Part shown: positions 59,184 to 59,809 of the stretch, in pieces
Position numbering within the stretch: the stretch's first letter is position 1
Layout of the letters: each line of letters opens with the position of its first letter
Source: Escherichia coli
Lineage (GTDB): Bacteria; Pseudomonadota; Gammaproteobacteria; Enterobacterales; Enterobacteriaceae
Strand: one strand, 5' to 3'
Length of the DNA stretch: 64,000 bases
Assembly: GCF_003334255.1 (NCBI RefSeq)
Contig: NZ_QOWU01000009.1
Position numbers and translations under genes: made by a program
Notes under the pieces: model-generated
Database searches by the model: none
What the model was told of the DNA's origin: nothing
The model's input: only the letters and a program-made list of their open reading frames with translations

Positions 59184-59498
59184 ATGGATGACACCAGCCG
59201 GGACCCGGCAATAACCGAAGATGAAATCAGGGCGCTGCAATTTTCTGCCGGGGATGTAGCGGAAATAGAGCAGACGATTCTCTCTTTTGTCGATGCCTGC
59301 CACACCCGTAAAGTGGCGATGGTGGTGGGTAGCACCATTAACACCCTCAAAGATCGCGATGGTAAACGGTGGGGAAACCTGCCGGATATTTATTGCGCTT
59401 ATCTTATCCGATGTCTGGTTTTTCGCGGGGAATTAGTGGGATACGGCGATTTGTTTCGTATGCGCTATAGCGAAATTAAGCGACCGGTTACCTTATGA
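59184..59498 (+). CDS. yjeN: Uncharacterised protein YjeN (104 aa)
   Basis: 104-aa soluble ORF; stop overlaps the yjeO start (ATGA). Confidence 0.8.
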   Translation: MDDTSRDPAITEDEIRALQFSAGDVAEIEQTILSFVDACHTRKVAMVVGSTINTLKDRDGKRWGNLPDIYCAYLIRCLVFRGELVGYGDLFRMRYSEIKRPVTL

Positions 59499-59809
59499 GT
59501 GCGCGCATGTTTGTCTTATGCTGCATCTGGTTTATTGTGGCGTTCCTCTGGATAACCATCACTTCCGCGCTGGACAAAGAGTGGATGATTGATGGACGCG
59601 GGATTAACAACGTCTGCGATGTGTTGATGTATCTCGAAGAAGACGATACCCGTGATGTTGGTGTGATAATGACGTTACCGCTCTTTTTCCCTTTTCTCTG
59701 GTTCGCTTTGTGGCGAAAAAAACGCGGCTGGTTTATGTACGCCACCGCGCTGGCTATTTTCGGCTACTGGCTGTGGCAGTTTTTTCTGCGCTATCAGTTT
59801 TGTTTGTGA
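59495..59809 (+). CDS. yjeO: Uncharacterised inner-membrane protein YjeO (104 aa)
   Basis: 104-aa ORF with three or four hydrophobic segments; translationally coupled to yjeN. Confidence 0.8.
   Translation: MSARMFVLCCIWFIVAFLWITITSALDKEWMIDGRGINNVCDVLMYLEEDDTRDVGVIMTLPLFFPFLWFALWRKKRGWFMYATALAIFGYWLWQFFLRYQFCL

Follow-up and report, generated by a model that had tools for sequence, protein, structure and literature searches.

The closest described counterparts of the locus analysed here are gene pairs in which a type VI secretion system (T6SS) effector is followed directly by a small immunity gene. In Tge1/Tse3-Tsi3 of Pseudomonas aeruginosa and Tge2-Tgi2 of P. protegens, the effector lacks a signal peptide, a T6SS structural gene is linked to the two, and the Tgi partner is a soluble periplasmic protein or a lipoprotein. 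A second precedent comes from the hcp island of Pantoea agglomerans and the auxiliary clusters of Vibrio cholerae, where orphan immunity genes are kept after their effectors are lost, older immunity genes lie 5' of newer cassettes, and presence varies between strains (PMC9796082). The Pantoea study supplies a general model of orphan immunity, not a description of the family considered here, DUF2645 (PMC9796082). A paper on hcp2B of avian pathogenic E. coli (APEC) was examined as a further precedent and set aside, as it concerns a different Hcp island, with xmtU/xmtV (PMC5874247).

We analysed a 64,000-nucleotide stretch of Escherichia coli DNA (contig NZ_QOWU01000009.1 of assembly GCF_003334255.1; hereafter the window), in which the genes yjeN (59184-59498, + strand) and yjeO (59495-59809, + strand) lie between yjeM and mscM. 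A first-pass annotation had described two 104-amino-acid open reading frames (ORFs) overlapping by ATGA. Both are present, each with an ATG start, and the overlap falls at 59495-59498. The region is 100% identical to E. coli K-12 and many complete genomes, whose annotation reads yjeM, yjeN, yjeO, mscM. With slightly better than even confidence, we propose for yjeO the role of an orphan immunity gene, from a T6SS effector-immunity family not described in the literature we searched. That literature yielded no earlier link of DUF2645, yjeO or its K-12 relative ygiZ to T6SS, and did not mention DUF2645. While yjeN, yjeO and ygiZ are all long-annotated K-12 y-genes without an assigned function, the hypothesis covers yjeO and ygiZ, for which it names a candidate effector, X237, and a delivery protein, Hcp.

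The comparison with the described systems is close in layout and distant in sequence. Like the Tge effectors, X237 lacks a signal peptide, and directly after its own gene comes a small one, here of the DUF2645 family, in linkage with a T6SS structural gene. X237 nevertheless has no detectable sequence similarity to the Tge families or to Pfam SLT, and DUF2645 proteins are predicted to be polytopic in the inner membrane, unlike the Tgi proteins. The K-12 locus, moreover, holds the immunity-like gene only, and X237-DUF2645 is known here from sequence and models. As in the hcp and vgrG islands, yjeO would have been kept after effector loss, an older immunity gene can lie 5' of a newer cassette, and presence varies between strains. 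Unlike the genes of those islands, K-12 yjeO has housekeeping genes on both sides and lies a long way from any T6SS cluster, and the slot of the lost effector would be filled by the unrelated, conserved yjeN instead of being empty or holding a pseudogene.

DUF2645, X237 and Hcp

The first-pass annotation recognised no family for either protein. YjeO, however, is a full-length DUF2645 protein (PF10840; E 4.3e-41, score 139.9, residues 6-103, model 1-98 of 98), and PGAP names the product 'YjeO family protein'. We scanned one genome per species for DUF2645 genes. At the yjeM-mscM-type site they occur in Escherichia spp., Atlantibacter, Citrobacter, Trabulsiella, Pseudocitrobacter and one other Enterobacteriaceae bacterium. 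Outside Escherichia, X237 always lies directly 5' of the mscM-site DUF2645 gene and abuts its start. In Enterobacter, Cronobacter and 10 species-level loci of Enterobacteriaceae, X237 is directly upstream and its stop abuts or overlaps the DUF2645 start. We examined 19 distinct contexts in which X237, whole or as a remnant, is still present with a downstream DUF2645 gene, and in all 19 the putative effector is directly upstream and in the same orientation. K-12 yjeO itself is preceded by yjeN and no effector, and qualifies as an orphan only.

All seven contexts inspected away from mscM have hcp as a direct neighbour. The order is Hcp-X237-DUF2645 in Dickeya chrysanthemi, on a Rahnella aquatilis plasmid and on a conjugative plasmid of Serratia fonticola, whereas in Xenorhabdus griffiniae, Pectobacterium brasiliense and a Serratia sp. 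plasmid X237-DUF2645 is followed by a convergent Hcp gene. The seventh context, from an E. coli PN43 record (locus L039, 3489-5020), reads mdaB-Hcp-X237b-ygiZ-qseC. Linkage to hcp is a property of the DUF2645 family, not of this window. Homologs of X237 are themselves widespread in Enterobacterales, forming at least 174 clusters.

The PN43 arrangement brings in YgiZ (b3027), the other DUF2645 protein of K-12, which shares the loop cysteine, the C-terminal FC and the W..F..R motifs with YjeO. Like YjeO it is an orphan in K-12, differing by its location between mdaB and qseC. The Hcp-X237b-ygiZ trio occupies that site in 1261 of 5426 complete E. coli genomes (23%), UTI89 among them, and ygiZ stands alone in about 3300, including K-12 derivatives. 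The two putative partners have diverged in parallel, with 34% identity between X237a and X237b and 28% between YjeO and YgiZ. We consider ygiZ a candidate for a second orphan immunity gene in K-12.

X237 is a protein of about 236 amino acids with no signal peptide and no transmembrane (TM) segment. Its AlphaFold2 model (pLDDT 80) resembles lytic transglycosylases and lysozymes, with MltE (probability 0.99) and Tse3 (0.97) as top Foldseek matches, and the predicted structure combines a lysozyme/lytic-transglycosylase fold with a conserved catalytic glutamate. All 34 members share E77, S113-x-G115-x-x-A-I-Q120 and R189-Y-N-R-G193, which resemble the ES, GLMQ and AYNxG motifs of family-1 lytic transglycosylases. 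The protein matched neither NCBIfam nor any PDB sequence and falls in no described Tge or SLT sequence family; if it is an effector, it would represent a new one. Because it has a predicted wall-cutting fold, no means of exporting itself and a gene beside hcp, X237 would fit an Hcp-borne T6SS cargo effector.

The yjeM-mscM gap of 45 E. coli genomes holds, in order, K-12-type yjeO, an IS630 remnant, X237 and a second, divergent DUF2645 gene (yjeO'). Here X237 is the 237-amino-acid hypothetical protein WP_001061059.1, and its gene overlaps yjeO' by ATGA. This array matches the pattern described for hcp islands, in which a new cassette displaces an older effector and the older immunity gene stays behind as an orphan (PMC9796082). 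Strain MRY15-117 carries the islet at L011, 3017-5528; in strain SX48 (L008) the islet has an IS3 element in addition to the IS630 pseudogene, and the second DUF2645 copy is frameshifted. In Atlantibacter hermannii, Citrobacter youngae and Atlantibacter sp. RC6 (L022, L024 and L025), X237 is fragmented or frameshifted next to an intact DUF2645 gene, and these loci look like natural intermediates toward an orphan immunity gene.

The predicted topology of YjeO can be read against this proposal. The protein is hydrophobic overall (GRAVY +0.69), and the hydrophobic segments and basic patch that had been noted at first pass are borne out as three segments, at about residues 5-25, 57-73 and 80-98, and an RKKRGW patch at 74-79. 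Kyte-Doolittle analysis puts a predicted TM1 at 59507-59569 (residues 5-25), an acidic loop of net charge -6 at 59570-59662 (residues 26-56), and predicted TM2, the putatively cytoplasmic RKKRGW (net +4) and predicted TM3 at 59663-59788, all on the + strand. By the positive-inside rule, YjeO is predicted to have its N-terminus inside and three TM segments, so that the acidic loop and the C-terminal cysteine face the periplasm. The loop carries the family motif DKEW-I...NN-C41-D...E-DD-R, of which D27, K28, E29, W30, I32, N39, C41, E48, D50, D51 and R53 are invariant in eight intact DUF2645 members, as is a TLPLF-P motif. Cys103 (codon 59801-59803), at the predicted periplasmic C-terminus, is invariant like Cys41 (codon 59615-59617); the two are a candidate disulfide pair, and YgiZ conserves both. 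The loop is our proposed effector-binding surface. It and the C-terminus are predicted to lie in the compartment in which immunity to a peptidoglycan hydrolase would be needed.

The best-supported reading of X237-DUF2645 is thus a T6SS effector-immunity pair. If X237 behaves like the characterised Hcp-linked cargo effectors, it would load into Hcp and be fired into the periplasm of a neighbouring cell, where it would cut peptidoglycan unless blocked by the DUF2645 membrane protein. Upstream of K-12-type yjeO in the Escherichia/Salmonella lineage, the putative effector gene is missing, with the proposed immunity gene kept under purifying selection; yjeN would now occupy the former effector slot, in K-12 giving yjeO a ribosome-binding site and translational coupling. 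E. coli K-12 is not known to have a T6SS, and yjeO would shield such weaponless cells against Enterobacteriaceae that carry X237. The broader proposal has three parts: that the polytopic inner-membrane proteins of DUF2645 confer T6SS immunity and form a family not recognised before, that X237 proteins are an equally unannotated family of SLT-fold, Hcp-borne effectors that cleave peptidoglycan, Enterobacterales-wide and plasmid-carried, and that yjeO and ygiZ give K-12 a standing defence. We hold it to be evenly balanced between right and wrong.

If this is correct, clinically relevant Enterobacterales (Enterobacter, Citrobacter, Cronobacter and uropathogenic E. coli) would gain a new T6SS effector-immunity family, and one in which, unusually, immunity to a cell-wall hydrolase comes from a protein embedded in the membrane. 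The presence or absence of yjeO would serve as a marker of past interbacterial conflict in the gut. K-12 would carry orphan defences against gut neighbours, which would matter for how T6SS killing assays with K-12 prey are interpreted.

Several points weigh against the proposal. Secretion, enzymatic activity and neutralisation are all read from gene neighbourhood and predicted structure; the Foldseek E-values of X237 are weak (0.14 or worse, TM-score 0.4-0.5), and none of its 34 members matches a Pfam family, SLT included. At the mscM locus there is no hcp gene within 5 kb. Beside K-12-type yjeO we found no intact cognate effector, and K-12-type YjeO shares only 46-53% identity with DUF2645 proteins linked to X237. 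Known immunity proteins to T6SS peptidoglycan hydrolases are periplasmic and either soluble or lipoproteins; a polytopic one with a loop of about 30 residues would be unusual and could mean a membrane-proximal target. The proposal offers essentially no explanation for yjeN. Finally, yjeO is reported to be induced 2.6-fold upon sigmaE overproduction (PMC2731931), which could indicate a function in envelope stress instead. A reported association of yjeO with competitive growth in a mastitis pan-genome, though suggestive, was set aside, as it came from pooled liquid culture with likely phylogenetic confounding.

yjeN and yjeO as separable genes

Both genes are conserved. Comparing K-12 with other E. 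coli, Escherichia spp., E. albertii and Salmonella gave dN/dS values of 0.10-0.20 for yjeN and 0.04-0.28 for yjeO, against about 0.05 for the flanking yjeM and mscM. They are genuine protein-coding genes under purifying selection, and the lack of conservation that would have refuted the first-pass reading is therefore not seen. Their GC content (0.48-0.52) is like that of the flanks, and by this measure we saw no signature of horizontal transfer in yjeN-yjeO.

The two genes are nonetheless frequently parted. We counted haplotypes at the yjeM-mscM site in the 5426 complete E. coli genomes. yjeO is present in 3026 (56%); yjeN is present in 2153 (40%), essentially always together with yjeO. About 870 genomes (about 16%) have an intact yjeO only, and about 2400 (44%) have neither gene, only deletion scars. 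Among the yjeO-only genomes, Ecol_AZ153 keeps the hairpin upstream of yjeN together with two parts of yjeN, its Shine-Dalgarno region and its 16 final codons, and yjeO from a yjeO-only strain compared with K-12 gives a dN/dS of 0.04. In Salmonella the gap contains either yjeN alone, which is widespread in S. enterica, or yjeO alone, in rarer lineages.

The empty haplotypes, BL21 and O157 among them, descend by deletion from a yjeN+yjeO ancestor: about 47 nt of the 5' end of yjeN are still there, frameshifted. In the O157 strain TR01 (L001, 6034-6184), a unique junction joins the yjeN remnant to the last 15 nt of yjeO, while BL21-type genomes (L040, 2481-2630) have a different downstream hairpin. 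Because the TR01 and BL21 junctions differ, at least two independent deletion events have occurred.

In K-12, yjeN and yjeO appear to be expressed as a unit. A Shine-Dalgarno-like AGGAA at 59174-59178 (+ strand), 6 nt before the yjeN ATG, was read from the sequence and its function is presumed. The ATGA overlap suggests that yjeO is translationally coupled to yjeN, since no separate Shine-Dalgarno motif for yjeO is visible in the sequence. The overlap itself is conserved in four Escherichia species, and overlap or abutment holds across Escherichia spp. In the yjeO-only genomes the 16-codon yjeN remnant still overlaps the yjeO ATG: at L002 (4960-5045), the deletion joined the yjeN Shine-Dalgarno region to the last 16 codons, and the resulting mini-ORF (GTG/ATG...TCATGA) overlaps the yjeO start as if coupling had been preserved.

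The first-pass annotation likened the pair to small two-component membrane modules. Part of this holds: one protein is soluble and acidic, the other membrane-embedded, and in K-12 they are coupled by ATGA and share a transcript. The pairing is not obligate, however, as the genes separate in both E. coli and Salmonella. The ATGA overlap does not make yjeN and yjeO an obligate functional pair.

What, then, is YjeN? The protein is cytoplasmic, mildly acidic and hydrophilic, the last two as first described (pI 5.33, GRAVY -0.15), with its charge unevenly spread: the N-terminal 40 residues, which form acidic helices, carry -8, and the remainder, the basic winged-helix half, +6. It has no direct match in Pfam, NCBIfam, PADLOC or PHROGs, and no match to the Pfam DUF3658 model (PF12395) even at E <= 10; a MerR match (E 0.14) was dismissed as weak. 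Word-index homolog searches with YjeN or YjeO reached only Escherichia and Salmonella. An exhaustive search with a profile of 8 YjeN orthologs, however, retrieved 180 representatives at E <= 1e-3 over about residues 7-101, including DUF3658 proteins with E down to 1e-16. Many of these relatives are standalone proteins of about 100 amino acids; in others the region is the C-terminal domain of longer, heterogeneous proteins. When 46 were aligned, 43 matched PF12395 at E <= 1e-3, and the three that did not were exactly the YjeN sequences from enterobacteria, the orthologs of Salmonella and E. albertii among them. Through this full-length profile homology YjeN belongs, transitively, to DUF3658, and the earlier impression of a protein without a family gives way to a divergent winged-helix member of that group.

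DUF3658 is usually the C-terminal domain of DUF1835 proteins, whereas YjeN is standalone. The two share RKVA-VVG...PD-(Y/F)Y...LV-G-L...G-L-RMR(Y/F)SE(V/I)(R/K) and the winged-helix fold, but the near-invariant Arg of the DUF3658 YAxR motif is replaced in YjeN by L74. The AlphaFold2 model of YjeN is confident (pLDDT 94.6) and matches solved winged-helix domains, with a helix-turn-helix and a beta-hairpin wing. A PDB sequence match of the family profile, to an engineered cytochrome, was rejected as a spurious repeat match. A comparison with X237 ruled out that YjeN is a remnant of it (hhalign probability 0.2%).

Membership in DUF3658 gives no mechanism for YjeN. Because Salmonella maintains yjeN without yjeO at a dN/dS of 0.10, yjeN must have an independent function of its own. 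Distant DUF3658 genes have no conserved membrane neighbour and occur in IS-rich regions, in arrays of small ORFs and in one class 1 integron cassette, the last of which suggests that the domain works without a dedicated neighbour. The cassette encodes a 172-amino-acid DUF3658 protein between dfrA1 and aadA on the Klebsiella pneumoniae IncN plasmid pRHB30-C05_6 (L043, 4282-4800); it may be the cassette called orfC/gcuC, which has no known function. In GCA_050306045.1 (L014, 52-3797), a distant standalone DUF3658 gene ends a run of four small ORFs of 73-110 amino acids that have no family match, together with a 492-amino-acid protein with a faint Chlam_PMP match, a layout that resembles an immunity-gene array. 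Our best guess, weakly supported, is that YjeN binds nucleic acid or protein and needs no dedicated partner; more speculatively, it would be a portable immunity or anti-toxin-type factor and not a regulator.

Alternative readings of the locus

The strongest alternative, which we regard as unlikely, is that yjeN-yjeO is a dedicated module, with YjeN as a small winged-helix regulator and YjeO as the membrane protein that acts as its sensor or anti-regulator, much as regulators of the PadR or BlaI type are paired with membrane proteins, perhaps in envelope stress. The conserved ATGA overlap, the winged-helix fold with its basic C-terminal half, the shared transcript (PMC4168707) and the sigmaE response of yjeO (PMC2731931) all point this way. 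Against it, each gene is found intact without the other, both ways in Salmonella, and the partner with which DUF2645 is conserved elsewhere is X237, not DUF3658. The separability of the genes and the DUF3658 relatives without a membrane neighbour together argue against an obligate two-protein machine. A search of 58800-59560 for the sigmaE consensus GGAACTT-N15-17-TCNAA found no match, a weak negative.

Somewhat less likely again is that X237 is a housekeeping peptidoglycan remodeller, for example one opening the wall for T6SS assembly, with DUF2645 as its membrane anchor or regulator and K-12 yjeO as a decaying remnant. The predicted SLT fold and the link to the structural gene hcp would suit such an enzyme. 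Yet X237, with neither signal peptide nor TM segment, would have no route of its own to the wall; it lies beside orphan hcp genes, some of them plasmid-borne, and not in full T6SS clusters; and yjeO, being under purifying selection, is not decaying. That the downstream gene outlasts the decay of X237 suits an immunity gene, not an anchor.

It is very improbable that YjeO serves MscM as an accessory or regulatory subunit, or otherwise acts in osmotic homeostasis. mscM (yjeP; 59838-63161, - strand) encodes a mechanosensitive channel and is convergent with DUF2645 in all 12 Enterobacteriaceae species-level loci found, as well as in Enterobacter and Cronobacter; yjeN has been placed among osmotic and stress processes by its location (PMC9976479). 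Convergence, however, means that yjeO and mscM are not co-transcribed, and phylogenetic co-occurrence, suggested at first pass as a check, shows mscM without yjeO in 44% of E. coli genomes. The adjacency is confined to Enterobacteriaceae. Outside them, DUF2645 genes have no mscM nearby and travel with hcp, on chromosomes and plasmids, and the mdaB-qseC site likewise has no mscM near it. Vertical inheritance of a single insertion site explains the adjacency, and a functional tie to mscM is not supported: mscM is a positional neighbour of yjeO, not a demonstrated partner.

Least probable of all is a toxin-antitoxin operon, in which the upstream gene would encode an acidic, soluble antitoxin and the downstream gene a small membrane toxin. 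The pair is like type II operons in the order and size of its genes and in their ATGA overlap, but PADLOC, NCBIfam and Pfam gave no toxin-antitoxin match, the reading is largely refuted by the natural yjeO-only E. coli genomes, in which yjeO is under strong purifying selection, and, with yjeN alone in Salmonella, dependency is ruled out in both directions because each gene is kept alone and intact.

Transcripts, hairpins and neighbouring genes

Upstream, the locus is bounded by yjeM (57630-59132, + strand), which encodes a transporter of the APC family; its coordinates come from the ORF listing, and its name and length of 1503 nt from the annotation of identical genomes. The stable hairpin with an 11-bp stem reported at first pass just 3' of this gene is real. 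It reads GCCCTATCGTC-tacct-GACGATAGGGC at 59139-59165, with 11 Watson-Crick pairs, and extends to 13 pairs at 59137-59167 (+ strand, starting 5 nt past the yjeM stop) by one G-U and one A-U pair. The predicted free energy is -28 kcal/mol (z = -5.3), and none of 200 shuffled sequences was equally stable. The hairpin occurs once in the window, which rules it out as a within-window repeat element, and Rfam returned no family across 58800-60000. It does not qualify as an intrinsic (Rho-independent) terminator: no U-tract lies 3' of the 59139-59165 stem, where GTAAAGACAGG comes next instead, and a terminator scan did not report it.

This hairpin is better assigned to the 3' end of yjeM than to the yjeN-yjeO pair, with which it had been grouped, because what other lineages have at this site is REP elements or hairpins of no relation to it. 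We compared 59137-59167 of the window with L009 (3960-4000), L003 (5990-6050) and L033 (4915-4960). A B2-type lineage has a hairpin of other sequence, AACTCATCG...CGATGAGTT; Salmonella has REP-like GCCGGATAAG... elements; and Enterobacter has yet another hairpin. Between lineages, the structure after yjeM is conserved in presence, not in sequence.

The hairpin is better read as a 3' stem-loop of yjeM with transcriptional read-through. An assembly from RNA sequencing places part of yjeM together with yjeN and yjeO on one transcript (PMC4168707), and the yjeM transcript apparently reads through into the pair. Directly upstream of yjeN there is no sigma-70 or sigmaE consensus, and no convincing promoter of its own.

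Downstream, a second hairpin occupies the 28-nt gap between the convergent stops of yjeO and mscM. Its core, GCCGGAT-tggttc-ATCCGGC, lies at 59810-59829; the extended form, to which no strand is assigned, spans 59802-59837 and folds with a predicted -21.3 kcal/mol (z -5.6). It is kept in TR01, which lacks yjeN and yjeO, and is a candidate bidirectional transcript-end structure.

The interval upstream of mscM varies more widely still. Atlantibacter, Trabulsiella and Cronobacter (L023, L025, L027 and L032) are missing yjeM, and X237-DUF2645 follows epmA directly; the whole epmA-mscM interval is therefore variable across Enterobacteriaceae.

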